From Clostridiales bacterium (GTDB lineage Bacteria; Bacillota; Dehalobacteriia; UBA7702), in assembly GCA_040766525.1 (NCBI GenBank), contig JAXGQI010000003.1, positions 16,335-80,334 of the forward strand: a stretch of 64,000 nucleotides of DNA, read 5' to 3'. Shown piece by piece: positions 3,458 to 63,744 of this stretch. The stretch's first letter is position 1, and every line of letters begins with the position of its first letter. The position numbers and the translations under genes were made by a program. The notes beneath the pieces were generated by a model. The model was given only the letters and a program-made list of their open reading frames with translations. It ran no database searches and was not told the DNA's origin.

Positions 3458-4265
3458 CGGTCATTGGCCACCGTATCCTCCAGCATCTCAATCGACCTCC
3501 TCTCATCACTGTAAAGGCAAATCGTCCGCGGTATCCACATGCAAAAATATGCAAAAGGAAACCACAAGCGCCTCTCTTTTCCCATCATTGCCGTAATAGC
3601 CACGATTCCTCCTTTTTCGGAGGGGCGGCAATAACCGGCTGCCTCTTGGGAACAGCAGTTCGTTTTCTACGGAAGATTGGGATAAAAACCCCAAGAAAGA
3701 TTCTACCGCCTGGTTTTTCTCCGCCGATATCATCGCTGAGCCAATTATAGATCCGCAAGGCCGTCATGCTTCTCTCTCGGCAGAAGTGCGGCGATTTTTT
3801 GCATCGCTTCTCCAATGGCATCCCATTGATGAGGCTCTTGCCATTGCTCTTGCTAAAAGCATTCCGCCATGATACGCGTATTTCTCATTCTTAGCCGAAA
3901 GCGCTTACCGCTGCTACGCAAAAGCGGCTAATATAAAGCATCCAACGATATATAACGCCCAAGGGCACTATTGCTCGTATTTGTAACCGTCATTAAAAAT
4001 CAAGCTTTTCATGAAAACGCATATCTTCACTTCGCTAAACAAATGAACCGTCTTTTTGCGCAGACAATATAGCAGAGTAAAGAAGGATAAGGTAAAATAA
4101 CCCGGACAGTGAAATCAGAAAAATCAATGACAGATTAATGCTGACATCACCATATTGCCGTCATTGACAAGCGCTGAAAAGCAACACGCTCTTGGTTTAG
4201 TCAAGGGCGTGTCATTTTTACACCATTGAAATTTTTTTATTTTACGGGATCACTCCATCGTCAGA

Positions 4266-5350
4266 TCAAATGTATAGAAAGCGTCCACATAATCGGTAAA
4301 AAGAAATGGAAAAATCACCGCCGAGATCTCCGGTGTCAATCATGGCATAGCCGATCCCTTCCTCAAACGGAATTATCTCCCCGATTTCCCACTCATAGCC
4401 GGAATGGGCAAAAGAGACTTCCGGATGATCCAAAAGAACAATCTTCGCCCCGGCCGACACCGGGATCATAGCGTTATAGTGATACCCCATTCCCGTTCCG
4501 TCTTCAGAAAAATCTGCTGGTGAAATGCTTTCCCCATTGATTGTAAAAATCGGCACATCGGTATCTTCCTCCACCTGGACAATTTCGATCACAATATCTT
4601 CCGCTCCAACGATCGGCCGAAAACGTGATATCGATGGGGGTAAACAAAATGGAATCCCCTTCTAAATCCAATGTCTGCCATCTGCCGTCAAACGACACAT
4701 ACCAGGCACCGTCATCTTCAACATACGCACCGTTTTCCCAAACAGCTTCGGAAAAATCCAACAAGCCTGTTTGATTAACCAGCACCTGATGGACCACATT
4801 GTATTCGCTGAAAGTGGTCGCTTATCTGAATAAAACAGCATTGGCGCCGTCAATAATCGTCTTCCCATACAGCTGCTCCCCAGCGGCTCCTCAAAGCCAC
4901 CATAAATACTCACTCACAATTTCATCCCGCCACACCAAGCGAAACGGTTCCAGCCGTTTTGACAAGATCGTGGCGACAAGGGGCGTCTCAAAATAGTCAG
5001 CATATACGCCCAGTTGATAAACGAGCCCAATATAATACGGTTCTTGATCAAAATATGCTTTAACACCGTGACCGATAAACTCATTTCGCAAAGCACCTCG
5101 AAAAATGCGGGCTGCTTCCTGATCCGCACCAGTTGCCTCAGATTTTGACACCATCATCAACACCAGAAGGCTCATCTCCTTCCGTACTTCGGAAGACCTT
5201 AAAGATAAGGCCGTCTACACCGCACCCAAAGAAAGCACCGCAATACAAAGACACACAACTAAGACAATGACCAAGGGCCGCTTCCCCTTTTTCGTCTGCC
5301 TATCCTCACTGATATCATCATGGCTTGGGGCTCCAAGGCTGACCGCAAAA
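4266..5350 (-). pseudogene. membrane-anchored or secreted protein of unknown function, frame-disrupted
   Basis: Signal-anchor KKGKRPLVIVLVVCLCIAVLSLGAV is followed by an in-frame stop. The body is then split over at least 4 overlapping ORFs in different frames (4891-5175, 4662-4913, 4504-4797, 4266-4592). Confidence 0.6.
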
Positions 5351-5567
5351 AGCATCTCCCGGACCAAGATCATACGCATATTTGCAATGCATCATACTGC
5401 CTCCATTCAACCCTATCTTGTCTCCATTATAAAAAAATTGTCGAAAAAACACAAGGGAAATCAGCGCTTCGGGAAAGATTGATATTGACAGCATGCCGCC
5501 GTCTTGCTATACTCAATCTGTATTAAACAAACTAGTGCAGTTGTGACATCGAGAAAGGATAAAACTT

Positions 5568-5947
5568 TATGATCAATCTCGACGATCATCAGGATCGGCG
5601 CCCTCTCTATTTGGCAGGATCATCTCCCAAATTGAAGATCTCGCTTTACACGGCGTGTTAAAGCCCACAACAGCTGCCCTCCCTTCGCAGTTTGGCAATG
5701 GAACTCTCCATTAACCCAAACACCATCCAACGGGCATATAAGGAGCTGGAAAATAAAGTGTCATCTATTCCATACCGGGAAAAGGCTCTTTATCAACCCT
5801 GATTCGGAAAGTCTGTTTACAGGGCAAAGAGAAACTTTATAAAGATTTAGCAGAGCTGATCGCGCTCACGCGAAGGCCAAGCAATAAATCGACAAGGCGG
5901 ATTTTTTATCGGTCTGCGAAAAACTGGCTCTCTACGAAAGCAGGTGA
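5568..5947 (+). pseudogene. GntR/YtrA-type transcriptional regulator, frame-disrupted
   Basis: Fragments PLYLQ..., LPS.RQLAMELSINPNTIQRAYKELE and a C-terminal ...LALYESR* lie in three frames. The stop overlaps the GTG of the next gene. Confidence 0.65.
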
Positions 5948-6850
5948 AGGAATTGATTGATATTATTGATATCAGCAAATCATTCGATGACATCTTATAT
6001 GCTTTAAACCATGTGAGTTTACAGGTAAAAACCGCCTCCATTTTTGGTTTGGTCGGAACGAACGGCGCAGGAAAATCCACGCTGCTTAGGATTTTAGCAG
6101 GGGTATTGAAGCAGGATGCGGGCATATTTCCATTAACGGCAAAGCGCCGTTTGAAAATATCGCCGTGAAATCATCCTTTTTCTATATTTCCGATGAGCAG
6201 TTCTTTTTCCCCTAATGCCACGCCGAAAGATATGCGCAATTATTATGAGATTATTTACCCTCGTTTTGATAAAAAACCATACTTTTGATCATTTGTTTCG
6301 CCACTTCATTTCTTAGAATCGTGAAAAATCACTGATCTTTTCAAAGGTATGAAAAAACAGATCCCCCGCATCATCGCCGCCATTGCCGCCAATGTCGATT
6401 ACAGCATTTTCTGCAGATGAACCTGGACGGCTCGATCCGGTAAATGCGCTGGCGCAAAAAGCCTTTTCGCCGCGGGTTTCGATAGAGCGAGATCTAATCC
6501 AGCCATACGCTTCCCACAACGGCAGGAGTTGAAGACATTTCGGCGATCATATTGGTTTACTCCATGTAAAGAAATACATTCCTTCATCACAGGAATTGGA
6601 CGATATCAAAACCCATATCCACAAGATACAAGCGATCTTTCCCAATAAAGAATTGACGAGGGCGTGCCCCCTGATTCACCTGCGCATGGAAAGAAGGGGT
6701 TCTCTTTACGATCATCGCCCGTGGCGATACGACACGATCTTAGCAACGGTTGAAAAGGAGCACCCTACTTTTATTGAGGCTTTGCCCTTCTTAAAGAGAT
6801 TTTCATCAATGAAACGAGGTAAAGCAGATGTCCCGCAACCTCTCATATAA
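5944..6850 (+). pseudogene. ABC transporter ATP-binding protein, frame-disrupted
   Basis: Intact Walker A region ([19 protein letters not shown]) in ORF 5944-6168; the remainder is scattered over several frames. Confidence 0.75.
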
Positions 6851-8757
6851 AGGAAATCTCGCGTCTAACATGGAAAAGGACAATATGGCTGCCCTTGCAT
6901 TTGCCTTTGGCCTTCTTTTCTTTGCTTGCCGGTTGCCAACAGCATCCAGATCCAAGAAATCCAGAATTATGCCGAGGATTTTACCTTCAATATCGCCCAG
7001 CAAGTCAACAGCATCCTCGTTTTCAGTAACGCGGTATCAAAAGTCCTCTTGATTGCCGCAGCTTTGCTGGCCGGCTGTGTATTTTTCTACTATATGCACA
7101 ATAAACGGCAGGTCGATTTTATCAACAGCCTTCCTGTCAGCCGCACCAGACTCTTTTGAATCAATACATCGCCGGGGCAACCAGCGTCTTGTTTTTCCCT
7201 TTTATTGTGATGTATCTTTATAACCGTCATGTCGTCACCTTGGTTTCTGGCTATGGTTCCACGATTGGACGGCGGTTTGGAGTTCACTTCTATTCCACGC
7301 CCTCTTCTTTCTTGTCATTTACAGTTTTATCGTATTGGCGGGAACTTTAACAGGCAATCTGATCATCCAAATCATCGTTTCAGCGATTTTCTTCGCGATC
7401 CCTTCCGGTATTTCGTCTTTTTGGGAACGATGGATGCCACGGCCAGACCTTTATGCTGCTTTCAGTCATCTGTTGCACGGGCCATCCATCTTTCTCCATA
7501 CTGCTCATATCGTTTACGGCAGCAGCGACTATACGTTTGCCGTATTAGCCTCATGCCTCCTTTCCTCACCTTCTTAGTTGTAACTGGGCTGGCCCCTTCT
7601 CTCTATCGGAAACGGCCTTCGGAAGCTGCGCGCCATCGCCTTTTCTTTCGCAAAACCTCTATTACAATATCCTGTGTCATCGCACCTACGACGGCATGCA
7701 CTTTTCTTCACCAAATCGGCAATTCTGGCGGCTGGATGGTCTTCGGTTTCGTATCCGGCGCCTTCATTTGCAGCCGCATCATTGAAATTATCTATGCTTT
7801 CGACTTGGCGCGCTGCTGCCGCCATTTCCTGAGCCTGGTCATCTTCCTCCTGCTCTTTTCAGGCTTAGTGCAATCCCATTTCGATTTAACAGGGTAGCGA
7901 CCAGCATACGCCCAATGCCGAGGAAGTAACGAAGTCCGGGTCGAATTCGGCGACTATAATGTTTTTCATATACTGAATACGCGGCGAAAACGATTCCTCC
8001 CATTTCGTCATCGCCCCACATTAAACGGAAATCGCGCGAACGGCGGATGCCTATCGCCTGACGGAGAATAGCGTAATGCCGCCAATTGTAATATCGCGAA
8101 ACATGGGAAGAACAAACCAAACCATATTTTTACACGAAATGTTATTCCGCGGATACGCTCTATTTGAATGTTATTTACACCTTAAATAACGGCAAAACTC
8201 AGCACGGCGATATACCCAAGTCTTCGCGCAGGAAAATACTTGACGACTGATCACATCTTAAGCGACCGGGAACATCGGAAAACCAGATCCCCTCCGCCGA
8301 ACAAACCTATGCCGTAAAACTGGAAACTATGAGTTCTATACGATTTATGCCGGTTTTACGAAGAATATCCCTGGGCAAGACTTTGAAGAACGCCTCTTTG
8401 CTGCCTGCCGTGAAGATCTTTGATCCCTGATATCGCAACCACGAAAGAAGAATTGCCCATCGGCATGTTCTCTTCAGCAAGCGCAAAAGACGGCAGCTCT
8501 ATATGGCCAGATTTTGCCCAATCTACCCGTCCTTTGATCGAGTTTTTGCTCTTCTGGAAGAAACAGGCTATGAACAAGACTTCTTTATCCTCGAACCCGA
8601 TGAAGTCAGCTATATTTTGGCTACGACCTATGGAAATGACGACGGTAGTATCCAGTCAGAGAAAAAGATCACCGATCAAGAAGAAATTGCCGCCATTATG
8701 CAAACTACAGCCCCAATCGTGGCAATTAATTACAGTCTGCTCTATCAACGATTATAA
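6828..8757 (+). pseudogene. large ABC-2-type permease / accessory membrane protein of the YtrA-type operon, frame-disrupted
   Basis: A chain of short overlapping ORFs in all three plus frames with hydrophobic segments (e.g. LLIAAALLAGCVFFYYMHNKRQVDFINSLPVSRTRLF and LYRKRPSEAA), then a soluble tail ending at 8757. Confidence 0.55.
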
Positions 8758-8974
8758 TGAACACCTACGAATATAGGCCTACGCCCGACAACCGGGGATC
8801 CGCTACCCAGCATAAAAAAGCTGACTTCCACTATAAACATCCAAACTACCAGACATCTTCTCTCTTTTGGCGTTAATAATCCCCTTTGCCCAAAGCGTGA
8901 GGAGAGAAAATCGGCAATGACGGAACCATATATCGAGACGAAACTGAATGGTGAACAGAAATAAAAAGAGGTTC

Positions 8975-9702
8975 ATGGCGCTTTCATTGAAATCAAAATC
9001 TACGCGCGTCTACCATGTTGGGAACGAAAAAGTCGGGCATTAGGATAAAATCATCTCTCCACGGAAAAGGAGAGATTTGCTGCGTCCTGGCGACCTCCGG
9101 TTCCGAACGACGCCGTTAAATATGCTGGCAGGCTTAGAAACGACAAAAGGCGTCAGCAAATCGACTGAGCAACGCGACATTTCCGCGCTTAGATGAAAAA
9201 AGTCGCCCTTTTTCCACAAAACAACGCTTTGGTTTGAAGCTTCCAATCCACAACTGATGCTTCCATTACAGCCCTGGAAAAGGTTTTACGCGGCCATGAT
9301 TTTCGCGCTCGACAAGGCAAAGGCCTCGGAAAGGAAGCCCGGAAAGATGCTCAAACGTCCGCTCGGACTGAGCAATCACGAAACCACGGAAATGAGCGTG
9401 CAACAAACAGCGGGTGGGATTGCCAGAGCCTTCGTGTCCGCTTTTCAAGCCTATTTTGCCGACGAACCCACCGGTAATTAGATTCCAAAACCAGCAATGA
9501 GGTCATGACTTTGATGGTGCGCATGGCCAAAAAATACCGGCAAACCCTCGTGATTGTGACCCATGATATTGAAATTGCCCGCTATAGCGACCGCATCATC
9601 CATATTCTCGATGGTAAAATCGACGATGACCAACCCAATATTTCCTTACTCGCAAACCAATGTACGGAAGAAATTAATCAAACGGGAGAACGCATGGCAT
9701 GA
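8975..9702 (+). pseudogene. MacB/LolD-type ABC ATPase, frame-disrupted
   Basis: Recognisable pieces: RVYHVGNEKV, a relic of LSGGQQQRVAIARA read as MSVQQTAGGIARA, ADEPTGN, and an intact tail QTLVIVTHDIEIARYSDRIIHILDGKI. Confidence 0.75.
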
Positions 9703-10652
9703 AAAAGAAACGCTTGGCTGCCCTAATCACCATACTGATGCTGCTTTGCGCCGGCTGGACGCCGGTCCTGGCTACAGAAGAAGCCGATACGGAAATACCA
9801 ACTCAAACAGAAACATTGACGACTGCTCTTACCCCCAGCCATCATTAGCGGCTAAGGCTTTGGCGAAAAATTTGCGTCACCAACGGCAAAAATTTACGCT
9901 GAATTATACTTTAAAAAACACCAGTATGAATATGTTTGATCCAAATATGATCGCAAAAGTCAGCGGCGGAGAAAAAGTCTCGACTTCAAAGATACCGATA
10001 CGTTCTATGTGGAGAGCATCGCCTCAACGGAACAAAATCTTTAAGCATCGGCAATACCCTGATGCTGGAAGCAGTGGCGACCTCGTACCCGCATATTGCC
10101 GTATCCTATGAATACTTCGACAATGGGCGTCAAATACCCGGGGGCTGCCGATCTTAACATCAATGGTGCCGCTGCAACAGCAACAAAAAGTCCGTTTACA
10201 GAATATTTTGGCATCAGTGAAAATCCGAAATCATCACTGGGAATGAATATGAATTACAGATAGATCATCAATCGGCTACGGGAAATTTATGTCTTGGAGC
10301 GGCAGCTCAACTCTGCAGGAATCATGATCGCTTCCGCCTATTTAGAAACTTGGCTCCGTCAAGCGAATTGAACAATACAGTGGGCAGCCTTTATCTCAGC
10401 TTTGACGAGCCGGAACAGAAACGCTAAATTTCATCTTAAATTAAGAAGAACGACCATGAAACAGCCAAAGTCTCAGCCAAACATTCGCGATTGAAAATCA
10501 GCGACTACACGCCCCCCATCGAAGAGGAATCGGAGCTTCCGATCGAAGAAACCGAGTGGATTCAGCCCCATTCTCTTCCTTTTGGTCATCACCCCGATCG
10601 CTGCCGGTATCATCACCGCAACGATCCTGTTGGTAAAGAAAAAACGCGCCTA
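9699..10652 (+). pseudogene. secreted, C-terminally anchored protein of unknown function, frame-disrupted
   Basis: Signal peptide MKKKRLAALITILMLLCAGWTPVLA, then premature stops and frame changes. A C-terminal TM segment plus KKKRA* lies at 10563-10652. Confidence 0.5.
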
Positions 10653-10719
10653 AAAAGCTGCCCGCATCTTAGCGGAAGCAGAAGACGATGAGGACGATGA
10701 GGATTTCGATCTGCTTTCT

Positions 10720-12101
10720 ATGTGCTTTAGAAGCCTACTCAGGAGAAAAGTGCGCACAATTTTGACGGTGATGGGTGTCGTCATCGGGACCTGCTCCATC
10801 GTTGTCATGATCTCTCTCGGCGTAGGCCTTAACGAAATGCAGGAAGCCTCTATCAATGAGATGATGGATCTCACCGTGATCGAGGTTTATTATAGCGGCG
10901 GCACATGGAGAACATCATAGAAGAAAATAACAATCCGTCTTTGAACTCAATGATGAGATGCTGAACAGCTCTACGCGCTGGATCATGTCAAGGCGTTACG
11001 CTGGTCCTGAATCTTTACGGGGAAGCGAAAATCACCGCCGGGAAATATCAGCATGTGCAAGCAATCTCAAAGGGATCGACACCGGCAGCCTCGATTTATT
11101 CGGTTATGAACTATTGGAAGGCAATTTGATCGAGGAGAGCGGCAAGCAAAACAAAGTCCTCTTCGGTGAAGATGCTGTCTATAACTTCTTCACCCTCGAC
11201 GCCACCTGAGAACCGATTCATTTCTACCCGGATGAAACCGAGAGAACCCGACGCCGCCCTTTGACCCGATGAGCGCCAGGCTCTCCATCACCGCCGTCAA
11301 TACCAGCAAGGAGTCCACGCAAATTCCCGCCGATCTTTCGGACAGCTATAACAGCGATGGCAGTATCGGCAGCGGAGGCGACCCCGCGCCCGGCGCAGGC
11401 GCAACTGGGAAAACTTATAGCTTCCAAACTGCCGGCATTATCAAAGGCGATTACAGTAAGGACTACGGCGATTCCTATAATGCTATTTATATCGATATCG
11501 AAATGGCCAAAAAGCTCTTAAAAGAATACAATACCTAAATGGAATCAAAACCTCATTCAGCTATTATAATGCCAAGGTCAAAGTCAGCGACGTCGCCTAT
11601 GTGGAAGAGGTGGAGGCGTTCATTCAAGAACAGGGGTCACACTCCACAGCGGCGCATCAATACGGAATCACTCCTAGAAATGACCAGGATCATCCAGTTG
11701 CCTTATGGGATTGGCGCCATCTCCTCTTTAGTTGCCTTAGGCATTACGAACACGATGATCATGTCGATTTACGAGCGAACGAAGGAAATCGGCGTGATGA
11801 AGGTTTTGGCTGCCGTTTTGATGATATTCGAGCCCTCTTCTCTGTGAAGCCGGAGCTATAGGCCTTCTTCGGCGGATGTTTCGGCATCCTGGTAAGTTAT
11901 ATGATCTCTTTATCCTCAACCTGATCGCTTCCGGGATCATGCAGGCGGAAGGCACCGAGGTCACCGGTCATATCTCGGTTATCCCTCTTGGCTGGTCCTG
12001 ATGGGGACTGGCATCGCCCCTGCCATACCTTTAGTCGCCGGGTTCTACCCCGCCAATCGAGCGACGCCATCAGCGCTTTAGCAGCGATCCGCCAGGAATA
12101 A
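10720..12101 (+). pseudogene. FtsX/MacB-type ABC permease, frame-disrupted
   Basis: N-terminal LRRKVRTILTVMGVVIGTCSIV, a MacB periplasmic-domain-like piece, ERTKEIGVMKVL and a final GFYPANRA motif lie in different frames. Confidence 0.75.
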
Positions 12102-12110
12102 AACCACTTA

Positions 12111-12139
12111 AAAACCGCCCGGGTATACCTGGAGCGGTT
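12111..12139 (+). terminator. hairpin A1, a slightly decayed copy of hairpin A2 without a T-tract
   Basis: AAAACCGC-CCGGGtataCCTGGAGCGGTT differs at 3 positions from the hairpin at 12292-12321. Confidence 0.5.
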
Positions 12140-12291
12140 AGATTGTCGACAAAGTCGACAAGATGGGAGACACAAGACGAAAAGCCTAGAGCCAGGAAAA
12201 GCAAAGTCCCTGGAAGCGCAGTGTATATAGAGATACATAAGCGGTCAGGGGCTTTGGTTTGACAACGCTATTGGCTTTTGTCTGCAGTCTC
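12140..12291 (+). repeat. interspersed non-coding element, core copy A (152 nt)
   Basis: About 85-90% identical by hand alignment to 20388-20530. The 5' end is TAGATTGTCGACAAAGTCGACAAGATGGGAGAC and the 3' end is GCTTTGGTTTGACAACGC..GGCTTTTGTCTGCAGTCTC. Confidence 0.85.
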
Positions 12292-12321
12292 AAACCGCTC
12301 CGGGAATACCCGGAGCGGTTT
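12292..12321. terminator. hairpin A2, a bidirectional terminator between the FtsX relic and the MoxR gene
   Basis: Perfect 13-bp stem AAACCGCTCCGGG-aata-CCCGGAGCGGTTT, followed by TAATTTTTAT. Confidence 0.75.
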
Positions 12322-12343
12322 AATTTTTATGTTCTTATAAAAT

Positions 12344-13222
12344 TTAAGCATTATTGGCGGCTAATTTTGCGGCCAGTTCCAAATCCTCTTCATATTTCAA
12401 GAGGAAATTATAGGTAGCAGGGACCTGCTCATCCCCCAAATCCTTTACTTTCAGTTTCGTCAAGACCTTGGCCCAATCGAGAGTTTCGGCAATGGAAGGT
12501 TTTTTCTTCAATTTTTCTTTGCGGAGTTTATGCACAAAATCGGCGATCTGGCGGGAAAGCTCCTTGTCAATCCCGGGCACTTTCGCATCAACAATCACCA
12601 ATTCCCTTTCATAGGTAGGATAGTCGATATAGAAGTGGACACAGCGCCGTTTCAAACCGTCGCTAAAATCCCGGGCGCCATTGCTGGTGAGGATCACGAG
12701 CGGAATCGTCTTCGCCTTGACCGTTCCCCATTCCGGAATCGTCACCGCAAAATCCGAAAGCGCCTCTAAAAGGAAACTTTCAAATTCTTCGTCACTCTTA
12801 TCGATCTCATCGATCAAGAGCACCGCTTGTTTTTCCGACAAAAACGCCTTCAACAAAGGACGGGGCAACAGGAATTCCTCGGAAAAGATATCCTTTTGAA
12901 TCTCATGCCAATGACTGTCCCTCGATTGGCTTTGCAGAAAGAGCAACTGCTTTTGATAATTCCAGTCATAAAGAGCATGATGTTCATCCAGACCTTCATA
13001 GCACTGCAAGCGGATGAAGTCCATATCGAAAGCATTGGCCATCACACGGGCGAGTTCCGTCTTCCCGACCCCAGCAGGGCCTTCCAATAAAATAGGTTTT
13101 TGCAGGAAACTGGCCAAACTTACAATCAAAGCCAAATCATCGGCGGCATAGTAGTTCTCCCTTTGTAATTCCTGTTTAATGATCTCAGCGTCAAACATTT
13201 TCTCAACTCCATGTCTCTTCAA
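12344..13222 (-). CDS. MoxR-family AAA+ ATPase (CoxD/CbbQ-like)
   Basis: Walker A GPAGVGKT and Walker B LLIDEIDK; size 292 aa; divergent partner is a VWA protein. Confidence 0.85.
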   Translation of the reverse strand: MKRHGVEKMFDAEIIKQELQRENYYAADDLALIVSLASFLQKPILLEGPAGVGKTELARVMANAFDMDFIRLQCYEGLDEHHALYDWNYQKQLLFLQSQSRDSHWHEIQKDIFSEEFLLPRPLLKAFLSEKQAVLLIDEIDKSDEEFESFLLEALSDFAVTIPEWGTVKAKTIPLVILTSNGARDFSDGLKRRCVHFYIDYPTYERELVIVDAKVPGIDKELSRQIADFVHKLRKEKLKKKPSIAETLDWAKVLTKLKVKDLGDEQVPATYNFLLKYEEDLELAAKLAANNA

Positions 13223-14663: not shown

Positions 14664-14696
14664 CCGAAAACCCATACGAAAATTAGGCTCCGACCG

Positions 14697-14753
14697 CACA
14701 GATGGGCTCCGGAGACTTTGGTTTGACAACGCATTCGGCTTTTTGCCGTCGAG
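14697..14753 (+). repeat. interspersed element, shortened copy C
   Basis: CAGATGGGCTCCGGAGACTTTGGTTTGACAACGCATTCGGCTTTTTGCCGTCGAG keeps the 5' (AGATGGG) and 3' (CTTTGGTTTGACAACGC..GGCTTTT) ends of copies A and B but lacks the middle. Confidence 0.65.
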
Positions 14754-14779
14754 AGGCCCCAATGGATTGGGGCCTTTTT
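14752..14779 (+). terminator. rho-independent terminator after the VWA gene and element C
   Basis: GAGGCCCCAatggaTTGGGGCCT followed by T6. Confidence 0.8.
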
Positions 14780-14967
14780 TGAACGGTGTATTTTCGCCAA
14801 TTCGCACAGATAGCAGGCCGCCGGGAGAGCGTAAAATGCCAGGCGAAAATGATCAACAAGGTGATAACTTACACCATATTTCTACCTCTTTCGCTTTAAC
14901 CACCGCCCTTTTCATGTTATAATGATAGGATAGCAACAGCGATACAGGCATCCTCGGAGGAGATTGA

Positions 14968-18162: not shown

Positions 18163-19831
18163 ATGAATGGATCCCAAGCCATTGTGGCAGTTTTAGAAAA
18201 GGAAGGCGTTGATACCATTTTCGGCTATCCCGGCGGAACTGCCTTGCCTTTATATGACGCTTTATATAACGCCAATATAAAGCATATCCTTACCCGGCAT
18301 GAACAAGGTGCGGCCCATGCCGCCGATGGTTATGCCCGGGCAACAGGGAGAGTCGGCGTATGCATTTCCACCTCCGGCCCCGGTGCCACCAATTTGATTA
18401 CCGGGATCGCCACCGGCTATATGGATTCTTCACCCATCGTTTTTATTACCTGCCAGGTCGCTAGAAATATGATCGGGAAAGACTCCTTTCAGGAAGCGGA
18501 TATTCGCGGCATCACAACGCCGATAACGAAGCATAATTACTTAATTAAAAAACCACAAGATCTCATTCGCTGCTTACACCAGGCATTTTATATTGCCGCA
18601 ACCGGCAGACCGGGCCCTGTGGTGGTGGATGTACCGAAAGATATCTTAATGATGGAATTGGAACCGGGCTTTGAAGAAGAAATTTATCTCCCCGGTTATA
18701 AACCCTTGTATGAAGGTAAAATCGAAGAGGTGCAAAAAGCGGCGGATATGATTGCCGCTGCTAAAAAGCCCCTGTTCTTTATCGGTGGCGGCACACGGAA
18801 CCAAGAAAAGTCCGATCTCGTCAAAGAGCTCGTCGCCAAAACCAATATCCCGGTGATTTCCAGCATGATGGGGCTGGGGGTATACCCCGGAGATGCGGAT
18901 CTCCACCTCGGCATGGTCGGCATGCACGGCACTTATGCTGCGAACCGGGCCGTTACCGACTGCGATCTTTTGATCGGTTTGGGCGTGCGTTTCGATGACC
19001 GGGTCACCGGATCAGTCTCCGGTTTTGCCCCCAATGCCAAAATCATTCATTTTGAAATCGACGCTGCGGAAATCAACAAGAACGTTCGCGTCCATCATAA
19101 AGTCTTGGCTGATTTATCCTGGTCCTTAAAACTGATCAAATTGTGGCAAAACCGGACAGCGATGACTGGACGAAACAAGTTTTGACCTGAAGAGGAAAAA
19201 CCGATCGCTTTTCCCCTGCGCGGGAGATGAGATCAAGCCACAACGGGTGATCCAAAAGATCAATGAACTGACAAAGGGCAATGCGACCATCGTGACGGAT
19301 ACCGGCCAGCATCAAATGTGGTCGGCCCAGCTCTTCCAGCCGAAAAAGCCGTTTTTCCTTTATCTCTTCCGGCGGTTTAGGCACCACAGGCTTTGGCTTA
19401 CCGGCTGCAATCGGCGCTCAATTCGGCAAAGAGAATGAAGTTTGGGCAATTGTCGGGGATGGCGGCGTTTTAATGAACTGCCAGAAATTGGCTACCGCGT
19501 CGTCGAACACAAACTCCCCCTCAAAATCATCGTCATGAACAATCGCTGCCTAGGCATGGTCTGCCAATGGCAACGCCTCTTCTATGACAAACGCTATAGC
19601 GGCTCTCTCTATGAAATAGATACCAATCTGGCGAAAATTGCCGAAGCCTTTGGCGCTAAAGGCGTGCGGGTGACGAAGCTGAAAGATCTTGCCCCCGCTT
19701 TGGAAAAAGCCAAAGGCAGCAAGAAACCCATTTTAGTAGAAATCATGGTCACACAGGAAGAAAACGTTCTGCCCATGGTACCCGCCGGGGCAGGTCTAGA
19801 TGAAATGATAGAATGGAGTGGCGAAAAATGA
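18163..19831 (+). pseudogene. ilvB: acetolactate synthase large subunit, frame-disrupted
   Basis: The first 340 aa are intact and TPP-enzyme-like. After that at least 4 frame changes occur (pieces [30 protein letters not shown] and [20 protein letters not shown] lie in different frames). Total length 1669 nt is not a multiple of 3. Confidence 0.85.
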
Positions 19832-20336
19832 TGAAAAGAACCCTCGCGGTTTTGGTGGAAGACAGACCCGGTGTTCTCACCCATGTTTCCGGCTTGATCT
19901 CCCGCCGCGCCTTCAACATCGTCAGCATCAATGCCGGCTATTCCGAAGATATCGGTTTAACCAGGATCACCGTGGTCGTAGATGTTGCCAATGAAGATGA
20001 ATTGGAACAAGTCATCAATCAGATCTCCAAATTGGTCGATGTAATCGCCGTCGTGGATCTCACCGGCGTATCTTCCATTAATCGGGAACTGGCCTTGATC
20101 AAGGTCAAAGCTTCTCCGGCAGATCGACTGGCCTCGTCGATATCGTCAATATTTTCCGGGCCAAGATCGTCGATTAATGCATCCCGACAGCATGGTCATC
20201 GAAATGACGGGAAGAAGATAAAATCGATGCGATGTGCCTGCTCGCGGGCGAAATGGGAATCATTGAAATCGTCCGCACCGGCAGAATCGCTATTTCCAGA
20301 GCGAATAAATCCGTCAAAGACTTAGCCGAAGAATAA
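19828..20336 (+). pseudogene. ilvN: acetolactate synthase small subunit, frame-disrupted
   Basis: The ACT domain (LAVLVEDRPGVLTHVSGLISRRAFNI) is intact for about 100 aa, then at least 3 frame changes within about 200 nt (VDIVNIFRAKIVD / DSMVIEMTG / DKIDAM..IVRTGRIAISR). Confidence 0.85.
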
Positions 20337-20356
20337 AACGAACAAAACAAAACAAC

Positions 20357-20387
20357 ACGCCCCGCAGGGTTCATCCTTGCGGGGCGT
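20357..20387 (+). terminator. hairpin B1, a duplicate of B2 without a T-tract
   Basis: ACGCCCCGCAGGGtTCATCCTTGCGGGGCGT differs from B2 at one loop nucleotide. Confidence 0.55.
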
Positions 20388-20530
20388 CAGATTATCGACA
20401 AAGTCGACAAGATGGGAAACATAAGACAAAAGCCTAGAGCTAGGAAAAGCAAAGGCCCTGGACGCGCAGTGTATTGAGATACATAAGCAGTCAGGCTTTG
20501 GTTTATTTATCGGCTTTGGGCTGCAGTTTC
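20388..20530 (+). repeat. interspersed non-coding element, core copy B (143 nt)
   Basis: Aligns end to end with 12140-12291, with the same GTCGACAAAGTCGAC palindrome region and the same 3' GCTTTGG...CTGCAGT.TC. Confidence 0.85.
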
Positions 20531-20566
20531 ACGCCCCGCAGGGATCATCCTTGCGGGGCGTTTTTT
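20531..20566. terminator. hairpin B2 plus T6, the functional-looking terminator between ilvN and the convergent kinase gene
   Basis: 13-bp stem (one G.T pair), 5-nt loop, then TTTTTT. Confidence 0.8.
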
Positions 20567-20645
20567 GATTCATTTTTATTCCCAATACACTACCGGGAAA
20601 CCCACTTCATCCGGGTATGATAGGGTTTGCCCTACGCAGCAAAGA

Positions 20646-22307
20646 TTACTCGGTAAAAATGGAGCCGCCGAGAAATTCACGCAGCAGCGAATTACTGGGC
20701 ACCAATTCCGTCGGAATCGGCAAGATATAATCAAGAAAATCCACGAGCCAGCGAGCGGTATAATACACCGGTTGCTCCGTGTTGACTTCCAATAGGCGGG
20801 GCATGATAATCGGCTTCAACGCCGCCAATTCATAAAGCAACGAAGAATTAAAAAAGAAATCCGCATTCTCCTGATAAGGGAAAATATTCCGCTCCTCTCC
20901 CCTTTGCACCGAGGCCCAACGGATGATCGTTTCCACCGGAGAAGTCCCTCTAAACTGCATATCCCGGGTCATCCGCCTGATTAAACGGCTATCCGAACTG
21001 GAGATGGGATTAAAATCGTCAATGTTGAGCTGGGTCAAAGTGCTGATATAAATATGGCGCTTATTCTTTTTATCAATACCGGGGGTGATATTGGGATTTA
21101 AGCCGTGGATCCCTTCAATAATCAAGATTTGGTCTTTCCGCATCCGCATGGGCCGAGTCCGCTCCATACGCCTGCCGGCATGGAAATCGTAAATCGGTGT
21201 TTCCACCGTTTCCCCGGCAATCAGCGCTTTCAGATGGCTGCCGAACAGTGGCAAGTCAACCGCCTCAATCGATTCAAAATCATAATTGCCCCAGGCATCC
21301 CGCACATTCTTCTCGCGATCAACAAAATAGTCATCCATCGCAATGGTCAGAGGTTCGATCCCATTGATGCGAAACTGAATACTCAGACGATGAGAAAAGG
21401 TCGTTTTCCCCGATGAAGACGGGCCGGCGATCAAAACCAAACGGATATTATTGATATCTTCCAAAATATCATGGCAAATCCGATAAATGCTTTGGCTTTG
21501 CAACCCTTCCCCCAGTTCGATCAAATCTTGGATCTTTCCGGCTTGGATTACCCTGTTAAGCTGGGCAATCGTATTTACGCCCTGCACCTCCGCCCAACGG
21601 TCGCTGCGGTTAAACAAGAGGCCAATCTTTTCCACCGGCACATATTTGGGCACCTGTTTGGGGCTATAGCAACTTGGCGCTCTGAGAATGAAACCAACGT
21701 CAAAAGGTTCCAACTCAAAACAAGGCAAGTAGCGGCAATTGGGCACCTTTAAACCGTGAAATACTTCTAAGCTTTGGGCAATCTCGCAAAAGGGAATCTT
21801 GGTGCGGCTGCCGGTAGAAAGCAAAACTTCATGTTCCTTATCATTCCGCTGGCGATAAAAACGCTTGGCGTCTTCAACAAAGGCCCACAGGCGATGAATC
21901 GGCGTTTCTTCCCGAATCAACTTTTGCATCTCAAGTTCCAATTGATCCCGCATTTCGGCGGAAAAGGGGATCTCCCCTTGGGATTCCCAATAGGTACCGT
22001 TCTCCAAGGTATGGCGTATACGCAAGCGCCGCTCGGGAAACAAATTCTCGTGGGCCGCAAGAAGCAAGAGCCTTTGGCTCCTACGATAAATGCGTACCCC
22101 CAACTGCTCGGTCAAATCGATCCATTCGATCTTACTATCTGCGATTAAACGATAATTCAATTCTTGCAAATGACCATTGACATAAGCCGCCACAACCGGA
22201 ATATCATTCTTGGGCAAATTGGACAAAACTTCCTCCAAGCTGATACCGGGAGGAAATTGATGAGTGCCTTTGCCAATCTGCACTTTAACCTGTTTCTTCT
22301 TGTGCAC
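20646..22307 (-). CDS. TGS-domain / uridine-kinase (PRK-family) nucleoside kinase-like protein
   Basis: 553 aa. Walker A GPSSSGKTT in the C-terminal half with PRK/uridine-kinase-like context; the N-terminal region resembles the ThrRS-type TGS domain. Confidence 0.7.
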   Translation of the reverse strand: MHKKKQVKVQIGKGTHQFPPGISLEEVLSNLPKNDIPVVAAYVNGHLQELNYRLIADSKIEWIDLTEQLGVRIYRRSQRLLLLAAHENLFPERRLRIRHTLENGTYWESQGEIPFSAEMRDQLELEMQKLIREETPIHRLWAFVEDAKRFYRQRNDKEHEVLLSTGSRTKIPFCEIAQSLEVFHGLKVPNCRYLPCFELEPFDVGFILRAPSCYSPKQVPKYVPVEKIGLLFNRSDRWAEVQGVNTIAQLNRVIQAGKIQDLIELGEGLQSQSIYRICHDILEDINNIRLVLIAGPSSSGKTTFSHRLSIQFRINGIEPLTIAMDDYFVDREKNVRDAWGNYDFESIEAVDLPLFGSHLKALIAGETVETPIYDFHAGRRMERTRPMRMRKDQILIIEGIHGLNPNITPGIDKKNKRHIYISTLTQLNIDDFNPISSSDSRLIRRMTRDMQFRGTSPVETIIRWASVQRGEERNIFPYQENADFFFNSSLLYELAALKPIIMPRLLEVNTEQPVYYTARWLVDFLDYILPIPTELVPSNSLLREFLGGSIFTE

Positions 22308-22324: not shown

Positions 22325-23421
22325 TTAGGGATTTAAGGGTAATAAAGCATCCAAGGTAAACATCCCGTCTTTACGAATGAGCTTTCCATCAAAATAAATT
22401 TCTCCGCCGCCATAGGCAGGGGTTTGACATAGGACGAGATCCCAATGGGTCGCACTTTGATTGCCATTGGGAGCTTCTTCATAGCAGGCTCCCGGCGTAA
22501 GATGAATGGAGCCCGCAATCTTTTCATCGAAAAGAATATCCCCCATGGGATCTTTGATCTCAGGATTGAGACCAAAGGCAAATTCTCCCACATAACGAGC
22601 GCCTTCATCCGTATCAAACAGCGCATTGATCCTTGCGGTATCATTGGCTTTGGCGTCAACGATCTTCCCGTCCTTAAACGTAAGAACGATATCTTTAAAG
22701 GTGAAACCCTGATTGGGGGAAGGGGTATTATAACTGATCACCCCATTGATCGAATCCCGCACCGGCGCGGTAAACACTTCCCCATCGGGGATATTGCGCT
22801 GCCCGTCACACTTGATGGCGGGAATATCCTTGATCGAAAAACTAAGATCGGTTCCGGGCCCTTTGATTTCAACCCGATCTGTCCGATTCATCAATTCCAC
22901 CAAGGGTTCCATCGCCTTCGACATCTTGCCATAATCCAAATTACAGACTCTAAAATAAAAGTCTTCAAATTCCTCCGTTGGCATCGACGCTTGCTGCGCC
23001 ATAGAATCATTGGGATAACGCAAAATCACCCACTTTGTTTTCGGTACCCGAATTTTACCATGAACCGGCTCCCAAAGCAATTTCATTTTTTGTTCTTGGC
23101 GATCATTGGGAACATTTTTTGCCATATACGGTTCTCACAACAGCGGATCCCCATATGCGTCCATCTGGCCATACGCGCTTCTTCCCATTGCCGCCGCATC
23201 GTAAAATGCTGATCCGGCGCTTCTTTCATCAAGGCCGCTTCCAAACAGGGATTTTCCAAATGCAGAAAGGGATCGCTCCAACAGCGTAAGCCTTTTCGAT
23301 CAACTCCAAAGCGAGGGCTTCGGTATTGCCGATGGCTTCGATCAGGATCTTTCCCCGGCTGCAATTGTGTAGAATACTCAATCAGATTTTTCGCCAATTC
23401 CTTCATGCGTAAATCTCTCAT
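22325..23421 (-). pseudogene. M29-family (AmpS/PepS-type) aminopeptidase, frame-disrupted near the N-terminus
   Basis: The C-terminal 266 aa are intact ([11 protein letters not shown]..., [13 protein letters not shown]). The N-terminal 100 aa (MRDLRMKELAKNLIEYS...) change frame at least twice. Length 1097 nt is not a multiple of 3. Confidence 0.75.
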
Positions 23422-23455
23422 ATAGACTCCTTCTTTCTTTTGTCCTAACCTCACA

Positions 23456-31891: not shown

Positions 31892-32401
31892 TCAATATCT
31901 CACCTCGGGTCTCTTTTCCCGGTCGAACTTTTTACAGCGATCCAGCACAGGGCAAGTTGAACAGGGGCGCGACTCCTTATCGGCTTGATAAAGCAGACGG
32001 GAAAGCCCGGCATGTCCCTGTTCTCGATGGTTTTTGATCGCTTCCAAGATCAAATTGATCTCACCTGCGGGAAAGCCCGCCGCAAGTAGCAATGGGCGGG
32101 CTAAAACCGCGCTTTCCGCGGCATGATCCAATGTAGGATATTCATATTCTTTGAAACGCCCAATATCATGGAGCAAAGCTGCGGCGTAAAGCAGCTCCTT
32201 GATGTTGTCAAGGTGGGGCAAAGACAAATCATCGTCCTTACTCTCCAAATAGAGAATATATGCGACCCTGGCAGTCTGCCAAAAATGCTCCATATCATGT
32301 TTGCAGAAAACCCGCGTCTGTTCCCATTTTGTATTTTGGGCACAATACTCCTGATAAATGGGATCAGACAAGATCTTCTCTATTCTTTCCATCCGCACCA
32401 T
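31892..32401 (-). CDS. HD-domain phosphohydrolase
   Basis: H...HDIGR motif; 166-169 aa; lies between ftsH and folP. Confidence 0.7.
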
Positions 32402-34333
32402 AAGTGAAATTTAAGTTGATGCCGGGCTGGAGATCCGTCTTTTCCGATCTCGGCTCCCGTACCGGCGTCTCCTTTTCCCCTTCATTATCGTCATCATTGC
32501 GAAGATCTTCTACCGGTTCGCTCTGTTCTTTCAGTTTTTCGCCTGTCATCAAAGCGATAAACTCTTCTGCTTCGATGGTTTCCTGTTCATAGAGGGTCTG
32601 CGCAACGAGATGCAGTTTATCCATATGGGTTTCTAAAAGCTCTCGGCATTTCTCATAGGCGGCGTCGATCATCTTCCGGGCTTCTTTATCGATCGCCCAG
32701 GCAACCTCTTCGGAATAGGCTTTGTCTTGGGTCAATTCACGGCCTAAAAAGACCTGGTCTTGGCTCTTCCCGAAGGACATGGGCCCCAACTCTTTCGACA
32801 TACCGTAACGGGTGATCATCTTCCGTACCGTTGCTGTTGCCCGTTCTAAGTCATTTTGGGCGCCGGTGCTGATATCCTTCAAGACAAGTTCTTCCGACAA
32901 ACGACCGGCCAACAGAACCACGATCTCATCTTCCATATGGGATTTGGTGACATAATTCCGATCTTCCTTGGGCAACATTAAGGTATAGCCGCCGGCCTGT
33001 CCCCGCGGAATGATGGAAATCTTATGGACAGGGTCTGTATTGGGGGTAAAATACGCCGCCACAGCATGACCCGCCTCATGATATGATACAAGCTTACGCT
33101 CGCTCTGACTGATCACTTTACTCTTCTTTTCCGGGCCTGCAATCACGCGTTCACTGGCTTCTTCCATTTCCGCCATATGGATCTTCCGCAAATTGCGCCG
33201 GGCGGAAAGCAAGGCCGCTTCATTAACCATATTGGCCAAATCGGCCCCGGTAAAACCGGGGGTTCTCCGGGCCAAGATTTCCAAATTAACATCATCGGCC
33301 AAGGGTTTCCCTTTGATATGGACACGCAAGATCTCTTCCCGGCCTTTGACATCAGGAATGCCGACAGAAATCTGCCGATCAAAACGACCGGGGCGTAAGA
33401 GCGCCGGATCCAAAATATCGGGCCGGTTGGTGGCTGCAATCACGATGATACCGGAATTTTCGGCGAAACCATCCATTTCCACCAAAAGCTGATTCAATGT
33501 CTGCTCTCTTTCATCATGGCCACCGCCGACGCCGGCACCGCGCTGGCGGCCGACCGCGTCGATTTCATCGATGAAAATGATACAGGGAACATTCTTTTTC
33601 GCCTGTTCGAACAAATCACGCACCCGGGAAGCCCCGACCCCGACGAACATTTCCACAAAGTCGGAACCGCTGATGGAGAAGAAGGGAACCCCCGCTTCCC
33701 CGCTACAGCTTTGGCTAAAAGCGTTTTCCCGGTACCGGGATAGCCGAAGAGCAAAACGCCTTTGGGGATCTTCGCTCCCAGCATATTGTATTTGCGATTA
33801 TCTTTCAAAAAGTCAACGACTTCCTGCAATTCTTCCCGTACTTCATCAACGCCGGCAACATCGGCAAAGGTGATCTTCTGGGCATCAGCGGACTGTAATT
33901 TCGCTCGGCTTTTCCCGAATTGCATCACCTTTGAACCGCCGCCCTGGCTTTGGTTCATCAGGAAGAAAAAGAGCCCGACCAAGAGCAAGATCGGCAATAC
34001 GGTCCCCAACAAACTAAGCCACCAGGGACTGCCCGCCGCCTGTTCAAAAGAAAAGCTCCCGCCGTTCTCTTCGACCAAAGTCCGAAGACCGGAATCCGGT
34101 TCAATCGTGGCGGCATACAGGCTGTTTTCACTGTCCTCTCCTTGTACTGTCCAGGCATTTTCATCTGCAACGGCCGTTACTTTGGAGAAATCACCCGCTT
34201 CTACTTTTGTGTAAAACTCAGATGAAGTTAACTCCGTGATCTCTGTACCGGAGCCGCCTCCGATGAATTGAAAAAAAGTGATGACCAAAAATACAATCAG
34301 TATATAAATGGTGAGATTCTTAAAGAACTTCAA
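32364..34333 (-). pseudogene. ftsH: ATP-dependent zinc metalloprotease FtsH, interrupted by a single 1-nt frameshift
   Basis: N-terminal ORF 33494-34333 reads through [16 protein letters not shown] and then goes out of frame. ORF 32364-33656 continues (F)[16 protein letters not shown]...HEAGH. Adding one G to the G4 run (C4 at 33698-33701 on the plus strand) restores [18 protein letters not shown]. Confidence 0.9.
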
Positions 34334-34934
34334 AGTAGTCCTCCCTTCAAAAAACGCTTCCTAAACAAAAGTTTATCTCTCTATTATGTCTGCTTACGGC
34401 TATTTTATCTGTTTATTATAGCATAGTAATCCGTCTTTTCAAAGTCTTTCACCGGGAATTCTCAAAATATTACATCCTCCTGCAATCGGTGCTCCCAGCG
34501 AATTTTAGACTCGCGGTAACCAGTTGAGAGAAACTGGCAGAGGCAATATGCAAAAAAGTCCTGCCATTTTCCCCCGGCTTTGCCCAGCGTTTCTTCATCT
34601 TCGTACTTTGGTGATCAATCAAAAAAACTCTGTATTTACACAAAAGGATCCTGTTGCTGCAAGCTACAAAGGAGCGTATTTAGGAAGAGCGCCCTGCAAT
34701 CGCCCCGAAGGGTCTGCTGGCCGTTACAATCGCCTCTTGAATGATTTTATGCCCCAGCTGCATTTTTTATTTTAATATTGTTTTAAAATTTGGGCAAGTA
34801 CCTGTCCGGCCACGCGAGGGCAAAAGCCGCTACCAAATGTTATTGATAAAATAATCTGATTCTTTGACAGTACCATCCCTTTTCTGATAAAATATAAATG
34901 TTTAGGTTATTAAGTGAGATAGGAGTTGAACACC

Positions 34935-36465
34935 GTGAGTATCGTAGAGCAAAAACTTGCTGAATTAAAAGAAAAGCAAGCCATCAATGGTTTGGGCGGC
35001 GGAGAAAAGAGAATTGCCGCGCAACATGAGAAAGGGAAACTAACCGCTGATGAAAGGATAGAAGCACTCTTTGATAAAGGCACCTTTGTGGAAGTCGACA
35101 GTTTCGTCAGCCACCGCTGCCATGAATTCGGAATGGAAGGGGCGACAATGCCGCGTGACGGGATCGTGACCGGCTATGGCCAGATTGATGGTCGCATCGT
35201 CTATGCCTATGCCCAAGACTTCACGGTATCGGCGGGGTCTTTAGGGGAAATGCACGCACAAAAAATCTGCAAAGTCATGGACTTGGCAATGAAAGCGGGC
35301 GCTCCCTGCATCGGCATCAATGATTCCGGCGGCGCCAGAATCCAGGAAGGCGTCGACGGCTTGAACGGTTATGGCGAGATTTTCAAGAGAAATTCTCTCG
35401 CATCCGGCGTAATCCCCCAAATCTCCGTGATCATGGGGCCTTGTGCCGGCGGCGCTGTTTACTCTCCCGCATTGACCGACTTCATCTTCATGGTTGATAA
35501 GACAAGCCAAATGTTCTTGCAGCCACAACGTCGTCAAACGGTTACCGGAAGCGTCAGCGCGGTGAAGCGGGCGCCAGACCCACAATAAAGAGCAGAATGC
35601 GCTTCTATGCTAAAAATGAAGGTTGCATCCCGCGCAGATCAAGCAACTTCCGGTAAGCTATATCCTCAATAATGAGGGAACCGGCCCCGGCCAATCAATC
35701 AATCGATCCCATCGATCAGGCGGAAAAATCTTTTGCGCAAATTGATCCCCGATCAAATGAACGGGCTTTATGACATGATGGGCGCAATCAAGGCCATCGC
35801 CGATGATGGCGAGTTCTTCCCAGTACAACTGTCTATCACTAAAAATATCATTACCGGTTTCTGTACTTGGGCGGCAGCTTCCGTTAGGGTCATCGCCAAT
35901 CAACCCAAATTCTTTGCCCGGCGCCCTCGATATCAATTGCTCCGATAAGGCCGCTCGTTTCATTCGTTTCTGTGACGCCTTCAATATCCCCATCGTCACC
36001 TTCGTCGACACCCCGGGATATCTCCCCGGTGTTAAGCGAAAGAGGGCGGCATCCTCCGCCATGGGGCAAAATTACTCTATGCATATTCAACAAATGTGCC
36101 GAAGATGACCGTCATCACCAAAAGCTTTGTGGGCATATGCCTGCCATGTGCTCCCAAAGCTGCTGAACGCCGACACAGTTATCGCCTGGCCGACTGCGGA
36201 AATCGCCGTCATGAGGGGCACAAGGCGCTGCCAATATCGTTTTCGAAAAGAAATCCAGAAACGCCGAAGACAAGACGCCAAGCGCCAGAAGAAAAATCGC
36301 CGAATATGAAACGGCACCGTATCCCTATTGCTGCGCTTCCCGCGGTTTTTTGTCGACATGACCAATCGATCCTGCCGAAACCCGCTATTATCTGATTCGC
36401 TCGCCCGAAACGATAAGCAGATCGAAGACCGTCCGGAAAAAACACGGCGTATGCCGCCGCTTTAA
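34935..36465 (+). pseudogene. acyl-CoA carboxylase carboxyltransferase (propionyl-/methylmalonyl-CoA type beta subunit), heavily frame-disrupted
   Basis: The first ~195 aa are intact ([11 protein letters not shown]..., [23 protein letters not shown]). After that there are many frame changes, but motifs stay readable ([49 protein letters not shown], terminal MPPL*). Confidence 0.85.
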
Positions 36466-49265: not shown

Positions 49266-49281
49266 TAAGGCAAAAACAGAT

Positions 49282-49316
49282 AAAACCCCGCTGCGGTCGA
49301 ACCGCAGCGGGGTTTT
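49282..49316. terminator. bidirectional rho-independent terminator
   Basis: AAAACCCCGCTGCGGtcgaaCCGCAGCGGGGTTTT. A second hairpin, AAGACCACCCGtcaaCGGGTGGTCTT, lies at 49338-49363 next to the rubrerythrin stop. Confidence 0.8.
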
Positions 49317-49367
49317 ATGATTGCCATCGCCTTAATCAAGACCACCCGTCAACGGGTGGTCTTAATC

Positions 49368-53711: not shown

Positions 53712-53948
53712 AATAATCCGCACCTATGGAGGTGCGGATATGAGACAATGCAACCCGCAACCTTCCCTCCCGAGGTTGAGGCAAATAATTTGGCAGGTTT
53801 CCTGACTCGAGGATCTCCTTACTTTCCGGCCTTCTCAGCGTTAGCCAATGGCGATTCGGATTTCATCCCCTCTTACAGTAGCGGGTGCTGTAACGGCATT
53901 GAACCGTTTTCCCTTTTACCCAAAAATTTGGCACCGTTCCCATATTCT
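53712..53948 (-). promoter_or_regulatory. cobalamin (B12) riboswitch with terminator expression platform
   Basis: The minus strand contains GGGAACGGTGCC..., CAGCACCCGCTACTGTAAGAGG and the B12-box-like AGTCAGGAAACCTGCC. It ends in hairpin ATCCGCACCTccatAGGTGCGGAT plus a T-rich tract just before the cobT RBS. Confidence 0.85.
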
Positions 53949-53986: not shown

Positions 53987-54001
53987 TGGCAAAATCCGTC
54001 A

Positions 54002-60369: not shown

Positions 60370-60442
60370 TGGCTCCGAGCTGGACTCGAACCAGCAACAT
60401 CTCGGTTAACAGCCGAGTGCTCTACCATTGAGCTATCGAGGA
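60370..60442 (-). tRNA. tRNA-Asn (GUU), with an apparently defective acceptor stem
   Basis: Minus strand: TCCTCGA-TA-GCTCAATGGTAGAGC-A-CTCGGCTGTTAACCGAG-ATGTT-GCTGGTTCGAGTCCAGC-TCGGAGCCA. The D, anticodon and T arms are canonical. The 3' acceptor strand reads TCGGA where TCGAGGA is needed. Length is 73 nt including CCA. Confidence 0.75.
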
Positions 60443-60451
60443 TTATTTAAT

Positions 60452-60568: not shown

Positions 60569-60658
60569 AAACTAACTTTATATAAGGTTTTGAGTTCTTT
60601 AAAAATTGTATAGAGAAAGCAGGGATCCAAAATACTTTAGTTTAATCAAAGGCTAAAA

Positions 60659-63744
<3,086 letters not shown>

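Follow-up and report, generated by a model that had tools for sequence, protein, structure and literature searches.

A small non-coding DNA element is found at intrinsic terminators in this genome, in two full copies with matching termini (A and B) and one fragment (C), all lying within 8.5 kb and in one orientation. Judged from comparison with related sequences, copy A is an insertion that duplicated an entire terminator stem-loop. The explanation that best accounts for the observations, to which we give a probability of roughly 60%, is a small, non-autonomous, MITE-like DNA transposon that inserts at the hairpins of intrinsic terminators, the whole stem-loop forming the target-site duplication. 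The positions of the features are collected in Table 1 and refer to the window, by which is meant the whole 64-kb stretch of DNA that was analysed.

Table 1. Element copies, flanking stem-loops and apparently truncated genes, with their positions in the window.
Feature	Position	Strand	Sequence or basis
A1, left copy of the duplicated terminator stem-loop	12112-12139 (or from 12111)	+	AAA(A)CCGC-CCGGGtataCCTGGAGCGGTT / AAACCGC-CCGGGTATACCTGGAGCGGTT
Core of copy A, 152-nt inserted non-coding element	12140-12291	+	homology to core B; absent in relatives
P1, palindrome with perfect 8-bp arms	12143-12161	+	TTGTCGAC-AAA-GTCGACAA
Long imperfect hairpin, 125 nt	12167-12291	+	arms match at 44/63; apex GTGTAT-ATAGAG-ATACAT
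A2, right copy of the duplicated terminator stem-loop	12292-12320	+	terminator scan; alignment to relatives
Last stem base and original T-tract of the native terminator	12321-12331	+	TAATTTTTATG (T-tract); aligns with orthologous T-tracts
C1, decayed remnant of the 5' half of the native VWA-gene terminator	14676-14698	+	aligns to GGAAAATAGGCCCTC in L001, L002 and L003
Copy C, internally deleted fragment of the element	~14699-14752	+	(C)AGATGGG then CTTTGGTTTGACAACGCATTCGGCTTTT; blastn, nhmmer
C2, terminator stem-loop to the right of fragment C	14753-14781	+	GGCCCCAAT..ATTGGGGCC + TTTTTT
B1, left copy of another duplicated terminator stem-loop, downstream of ilvN	20357-20387	+	30/31 identical to B2
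Core of copy B, 143 nt	20388-20530	+	alignment, blastn, nhmmer
B2, right stem-loop copy (20531-20561) + TTTTTT	20531-20567	+	terminator scan
Truncated carboxyl transferase gene	34926-35588		
Truncated BCCT transporter gene	38110-39168		
Truncated MttB-family methyltransferase gene	39462-40655		
Second MttB fragment	45567-45932		

Copy A lies between a degraded FtsX-type gene upstream, recognizable as tblastn fragments in several frames, and an intact MoxR-type AAA ATPase gene on the minus strand downstream. These are the neighbours named in a sequence-only reading of the same DNA, which had laid out the copy as a left hairpin, a 152-nt core that begins with a palindrome, and a right hairpin; its coordinates and sequences were all correct on re-inspection. 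Taken with its last stem base (12292-12321), A2 has a perfect 13-bp stem and a 4-nt loop and is followed by AATTTTTATG. The imperfect left copy differs from it at three points, namely one deleted T, one C>T change in the stem and one A>T change in the loop, which reproduces the deleted stem base, stem change and loop change described earlier. Both A2 and the 31-nt hairpin B2 consist of a GC-rich stem-loop followed by a T-tract, as is characteristic of intrinsic terminators; the T-tract is present after A2 and after B2 only, and A1 and B1 have none on the plus strand. On the minus strand, A1 is followed by TTTTT. In a terminator scan, A2 was the sole terminator-like site in 11900-12500 and B2 the sole one in 20200-20750, and a scan of the whole window for further duplicated hairpins found none besides those at A and B.

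The cores of copies A and B are highly similar. The proposal that they are the same element passes the computed global alignment that had been named as its check: 12140-12291 and 20388-20530 align with 129 matches, 13 mismatches and 11 gap columns, giving 91% identity when only aligned bases are counted and 84% when all columns are. This alignment scores 100, while 300 shuffles gave -6.8 +/- 5.0 with a maximum of 8.5; the same pair is found by blastn at E = 1e-39 and by nhmmer at E = 1e-25. Since the base composition of the core is balanced (entropy 1.97 bits), the similarity is not one of low complexity. Shared blocks of 25 and 23 nt occur in the window at A and B alone, with 0 expected by chance. 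Copy C retains 25 of the 28 positions of the 3' block, plus AGATGGG, and is recovered by blastn (93% over 29 nt, E = 2e-6) and by nhmmer (E = 0.008). The orientation relative to the upstream plus-strand gene is identical in the three copies, as had also been claimed.

The bracketing hairpins, by contrast with the cores, are particular to each locus. The bracket sequences of A and B share nothing, and the hairpin is 28/29 nt long at A and 31 nt at B. At locus B the same G.T wobble is retained in both hairpins, and there is one mismatch between them when they are compared as direct repeats but, by a hand count, four when they are compared as inverted repeats; the brackets are therefore direct repeats, and an inverted pair was rejected.

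The insertion itself is seen by comparison with relatives that lack it. Three were compared at locus A (L001, L002 and L011), with 89-90% amino-acid identity in MoxR and 77-80% identity at the DNA level. The gene order of L001 and L002 matches that of the window across ~16 kb, and L011 is a 1.9-kb contig that covers the VWA-MoxR-FtsX junction only. In all three, the convergent FtsX and MoxR genes lie ~90 bp apart, with one terminator, AAAAAATCCGCTCCCGG-loop-CCGGGAGCGGATTTTT, and no core between them, and A1 aligns to this single terminator. A version of the window from which A1 and the core have been taken out aligns base for base with the empty sites, from the A-tract across stem and T-tract and into the ends of both genes. 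The single terminator and the missing core thus bear out the claim that copy A is an insertion, and identify the bracket as a duplicate of a terminator that was already in place. With 29 bp duplicated at A and 31 bp at B, the target duplication has no set length but varies with the hairpin.

For site C, L001-L003 have a single VWA-gene terminator, whose two halves align to the left and to the right of the fragment; judged from these alignments, the site is consistent with the same insertion process, too decayed as it is for proof. Locus B is rearranged relative to the relatives, so that there is no empty site for copy B and the empty-site comparison is that of locus A. In the relatives, a gene for a 264-aa alpha/beta-hydrolase lies between the PRK-family kinase gene and ilvN (L001 1946-3020), with an unrelated terminator there; in the window this gene is missing, and just 85 bp (20562-20646) follow copy B. 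The nearest relative found, at 91% nucleotide identity, is a contig of run ERR14964773 (L012). It ends (1611-1636) 26 nt after the MoxR stop codon, where the element would start, and is therefore uninformative on the element; the break could have been caused by a repeat.

The copies appear to be old. Divergence between the cores has reached 9%, and decay has set in at the duplicated hairpins, which suggests that the element is probably inactive as well. It had been proposed from the state of the left hairpin that copy A is older than copy B. The numbers of bracket differences, three at A and one at B, agree with this order, but the single-base deletion in A1 may be a sequencing error, which makes the order unreliable in view of the assembly frameshifts at homopolymer-like sites. 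Such frameshifts split ilvB (two to three shifts), ilvN (one, GGG>GG), an M29 peptidase gene and ftsH into overlapping frames (18163-20336, 22325-23454 and 32364-34333), and at least some of them are at short homopolymers. The interruption of the essential ftsH, together with the shifts at homopolymers, suggests that the split genes reflect indel errors of the assembly and not pseudogenes only; with many such frameshifts, single-base details of the sequence are unreliable.

Several other features of the window were recorded. The nearest named homologues of MoxR, at ~70% amino-acid identity, are from Dehalobacterium and Peptococcaceae-type MAGs (Bacillota). Beside copy A, at 4200-12100, lies a degraded syntenic operon for a Zn-ribbon protein, a GntR regulator, two ABC ATPases, a DUF6449 protein, a CARDB protein and an FtsX/MacB permease. 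It is recovered as tblastn fragments only, in several frames and at 28-65% identity, whereas identity to the same relative is 73-90% in the flanking genes; the operon appears to have undergone genuine decay. Four further genes appear truncated (Table 1): the carboxyl transferase gene covers the first 181 of 493 profile positions, the BCCT transporter gene positions 146-467 of 485, and one MttB-family methyltransferase gene positions 21-407 of 500, and the fourth is another MttB fragment. Frameshifts, gene decay to pseudogenes or in-frame stops could account for them. At 49280-49318 there is a perfect 18-bp stem-loop, ATAAAACCCCGCTGCGGT-cga-ACCGCAGCGGGGTTTTAT, flanked on either side by A- and T-tracts; this strong bidirectional terminator is neither duplicated nor occupied by the element. 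The RNase P RNA gene (53998-54352, minus strand) is followed 50 nt downstream by a cobalamin riboswitch (53775-53948, minus strand), which directly precedes the cobT/cobU genes, and a partial rRNA operon on the minus strand, with 23S, 5S and flanking tRNA genes, occupies 60371-64000, the window ending inside a tRNA gene.

The core contains neither a conserved ORF nor a sigma-70-type promoter match common to A and B. The ATG-initiated frames have 8 codons in A and 21 in B, the difference being due to an indel. The core folds into a small hairpin formed by the palindrome P1 and the long imperfect hairpin that extends to its right end. On the plus strand, core A has a folding energy of -66.1 kcal/mol (z = -8.4), compared with -52.0 on the minus strand, and core B has -44.7 kcal/mol (z = -4.0); the plus-strand fold is the stronger one in both cores.

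It is conceivable, but unlikely, that the core is a functional structured RNA, either a 3'-UTR module or an sRNA that read-through transcripts yield by processing, whose paralogues have been kept by selection and are insulated by the double terminators, mobility being secondary or absent. Such an RNA would agree with the strong folds of both cores and their preference for the plus strand, with the common orientation of the copies relative to the upstream gene, and with the T-tract that follows the second hairpin alone. The sequence-only reading had asked whether the differences between the two cores are compensatory. One double change is of this kind (G-C to A-U), located at the foot of the long stem, but this is too few for a selected RNA structure: with two sequences and one compensatory change, a selected RNA structure and a DNA palindrome cannot be separated. 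Further, the excess of G.U pairs on the plus strand is slight (2-3 vs 1), and pairs of the long stem have been lost in copy B through indels. The core has no promoter of its own, and Rfam 15 gave no match to it at the gathering threshold in the whole window or at E <= 10 at the locus, the best matches (E = 0.4-0.5) being generic and confined to the terminator hairpin. The element is also absent in relatives that keep the neighbouring genes and in every collection scanned. Finally, a role as RNA leaves unexplained why the bracket exactly copies whichever terminator pre-existed at the site.

The ends of the core carry features of another kind. A motif of ~16 nt, AGAYNNNNGAC(N)AAA(A)G, was read by eye three times in core A: at the left tip (AGATTGTCGACAAAG, 12140-12154), 28 nt inward (AGACACAAGACGAAAAG), and inverted at the right tip (AGACTGCAGACAAAAG). 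The first overlaps P1, which lies inside a 23-nt run identical in cores A and B; the other two, one the reverse complement of the other in orientation, form the left and right feet of the long hairpin. In copy A, the left and right tips agree at 12 of 16 positions and the right tip and the inner left site at 13 of 16; in copy B the terminal match is ~8/16, the inverted repeats having largely decayed. The score of the local alignment between the ends was reached by 50 of 500 shuffles and is not significant alone. By their arrangement, the tip motifs resemble terminal and sub-terminal transposase-binding sites and may putatively be such sites. Elsewhere in the window, ATTGTCGACAGTATCGACGAACA at 41795-41817, inside an ornithine cyclodeaminase-family gene, shares 16 of 23 positions with ATTGTCGACAAAGTCGACAAGAT, the element's left end; this is probably a chance match.

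Several of the properties that define a MITE are present: the element is small and non-coding, it is flanked by a target duplication, and there are three empty sites for locus A. A parent insertion sequence with the same ends was not found among the window ORFs and the collections that were scanned. For a transposon of this kind, the following mechanism can be proposed. A transposase encoded elsewhere in the genome would recognize the palindromic terminator by its shape, not its sequence, the shape being an extruded cruciform or a single-strand hairpin. The enzyme would join the element's two 3' ends to the stem-loop at its outer feet, one on each strand, and gap repair would then copy the stem-loop to both sides, producing a duplication as long as the hairpin. 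Candidates for the enzyme would be one like that of IS1630/ISMhom-1 (IS30 family) or one of the IS1182 family.

Such an insertion would strip the T-tract from the upstream hairpin (A1, B1). The transcript of the upstream gene would read through A1 or B1, gain a structured 3' extension of ~180 nt and stop at A2 or B2. For copy A, read-through at the first hairpin and termination at the second fit the sequence, since the T-tract follows A2 only. Transcription of the convergent MoxR gene would run through A2 and end at A1, the hairpin with a T-tract on that strand.

The closest precedents are insertion sequences of mycoplasmas. A 1999 study of IS1630 reportedly found that its targets derive from rho-independent terminators of neighbouring genes. 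IS1630 of Mycoplasma fermentans has target duplications of 19-26 bp (PMC2853133); in strain M64 they measure 16-26 bp (PMC3317919). ISMhom-1, from M. hominis, is described as producing 'insertion site-specific inverted repeats' (PMC7648426). The likeness to the present element is that an inverted repeat serves as the target and is duplicated whole, giving a direct repeat that is long, palindromic and variable in length and sequence (PMC2853133, PMC3317919, PMC7648426); here, too, the target is duplicated whole and with variable length, and it is the local terminator. IS1630 and ISMhom-1 are, however, autonomous elements of Mollicutes, 1.26-1.38 kb in length, that encode a transposase and have terminal inverted repeats of 27 bp, while the element described here is 152 nt long, non-coding, with weak terminal repeats and in a Bacillota host. 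From its sequence, it appears to behave as IS1630-type insertions do. It cannot be assigned to the IS30 family, however, as neither the transposase that defines the family, among the window ORFs scanned, nor its 27-bp terminal repeats were detected.

A second precedent is found in the IS1182 family of staphylococci, where IS1272 and TnSha1 target terminator hairpins regardless of sequence (PMC4923244, PMC5678879), a targeting by structure like that proposed here. In addition, the left end of IS1272L, including IRL, is duplicated in tandem, which recalls the doubled left-end motif of the present element. Yet both IS1272 and TnSha1 delete the hairpin (PMC4923244), and IS1272, which deletes or replaces the stem-loop, makes no target duplication, whereas the stem-loop here is on both sides of the core, and an insertion of the IS1272 type was rejected. 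Duplication of the stem-loop corresponds to pathway b of the cruciform model that has been drawn for IS1272 (PMC5678879). The bacterial small repeats Correia, RUP, BOX, SPRITE and QMITE resemble the element in being short, non-coding, strongly folding, intergenic and multi-copy, and are often co-transcribed with their neighbours (PMC10969869, PMC3184786). They differ in that their target duplications are short and fixed, or absent, and duplication of a whole terminator hairpin is not described for bacterial MITEs or small repeats in the reviews consulted (PMC10969869, PMC3184786).

A more far-reaching proposal, which we regard as quite unlikely, is that this is the first known member of a class of miniature elements outside Mollicutes that use intrinsic terminators as a structure-defined landing pad, perhaps with an enzyme unrelated to IS30 and IS1182 or by an RNA-level route tied to read-through. 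If this were true, each insertion would make two terminators from one and add a structured 3' UTR, and as the element spread, gene 3' ends would be rewritten systematically.

Searches for further copies of the MITE-like element, and for a parent of it, gave no additional member. The left-end 23-mer and the right block have 0 exact matches in 185,579 species genomes. The central block has five matches in JGI metagenomes, which are chance matches since the agreement is limited to a 21-nt pattern, and the three core blocks have 0, 0 and 1 matches in IMG/VR, the single one again by chance. The core was not matched by blastn in plasmids and phages, and a covariance model built from A and B found only A and B in the window and the orthologous loci. 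A Pfam scan covered 46 window ORFs of at least 110 aa, nine ORFs already identified by synteny being left out; among the 46 there was no match to a transposase, an integrase or Cas1, and no IS30-type gene. Nor was an autonomous relative found in the genome and viral collections scanned.

The lack of a transposase among the scanned ORFs of the window, and the clustering of the copies, would also be expected if the insertion had occurred without a dedicated enzyme, a hairpin-induced break or a template switch during replication having captured stray DNA and repair synthesis having duplicated the hairpin. [quoted passage not shown] This course of events is nevertheless decidedly unlikely here: the same sequence of ~150 nt, with the same ends and orientation, is bracketed at two loci by hairpins that differ from locus to locus yet are precisely duplicated at each, and a fragment of it is found at a third terminator too. 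Random capture is not expected to repeat one fragment with base-precise junctions.

Other classes of elements are associated with hairpins. Group IIC introns insert directly beside terminator stem-loops, just past them and in an orientation fixed relative to the hairpin, and the ends of IS200/IS605 elements carry similar hairpins in direct orientation. To our knowledge, group IIC introns, IS200/IS605, IS110 and REP/REPIN elements make no target duplication. That the element is a remnant of such a class, whether a group IIC intron, an IS200/IS605 element with omega/HEARO RNA, an IS110 bridge-RNA end or a REP/REPIN unit, is very improbable, the duplicated hairpin here being a native terminator that is single in relatives. 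The hairpins also differ between A and B and are therefore not ends carried by the element. Moreover, group IIC introns are ribozymes that possess domains V and VI and measure at least several hundred nt, as against 152 nt here, and this candidate was rejected in the absence of an Intron_gpII or other significant Rfam match at E <= 10, the same search giving no HEARO match. The readings as group II intron, IS200/605, IS110, attC, dif and CRISPR were likewise rejected, since no RNA model matches and the terminator that forms the bracket is native and specific to its locus. Cas1-Cas2 offers an analogy only: its staggered attacks at the borders of a palindromic unit of ~30 bp duplicate the unit around the insert, but it is a different enzyme, its inserts are of ~30-40 bp and the same repeat is used in each event; no CRISPR or Cas feature was seen here. 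One general observation in favour of a hairpin-associated remnant is that terminator-like sequences are over-represented upstream of IS elements, and most so for IS200/IS605 (PMC13548323).

Transposition that duplicates a whole hairpin is a little-studied form of target choice, on record for only a few full-size insertion sequences of mycoplasmas. What is new here is a miniature, non-coding element with duplication of a whole terminator, in a Bacillota lineage far from the mycoplasmas, and the presence of the same signature in so distant a lineage suggests that the mechanism is more widespread than thought. It also suggests that terminators serve as safe insertion sites, defined by structure, that spare genes. 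For annotation, the tandem identical terminators and long structured 3' UTRs that may result could be mistaken for sRNA genes or attenuators. The partner enzyme, if found, would be a transposase that reads the shape of DNA and not its sequence, with potential as a tool.
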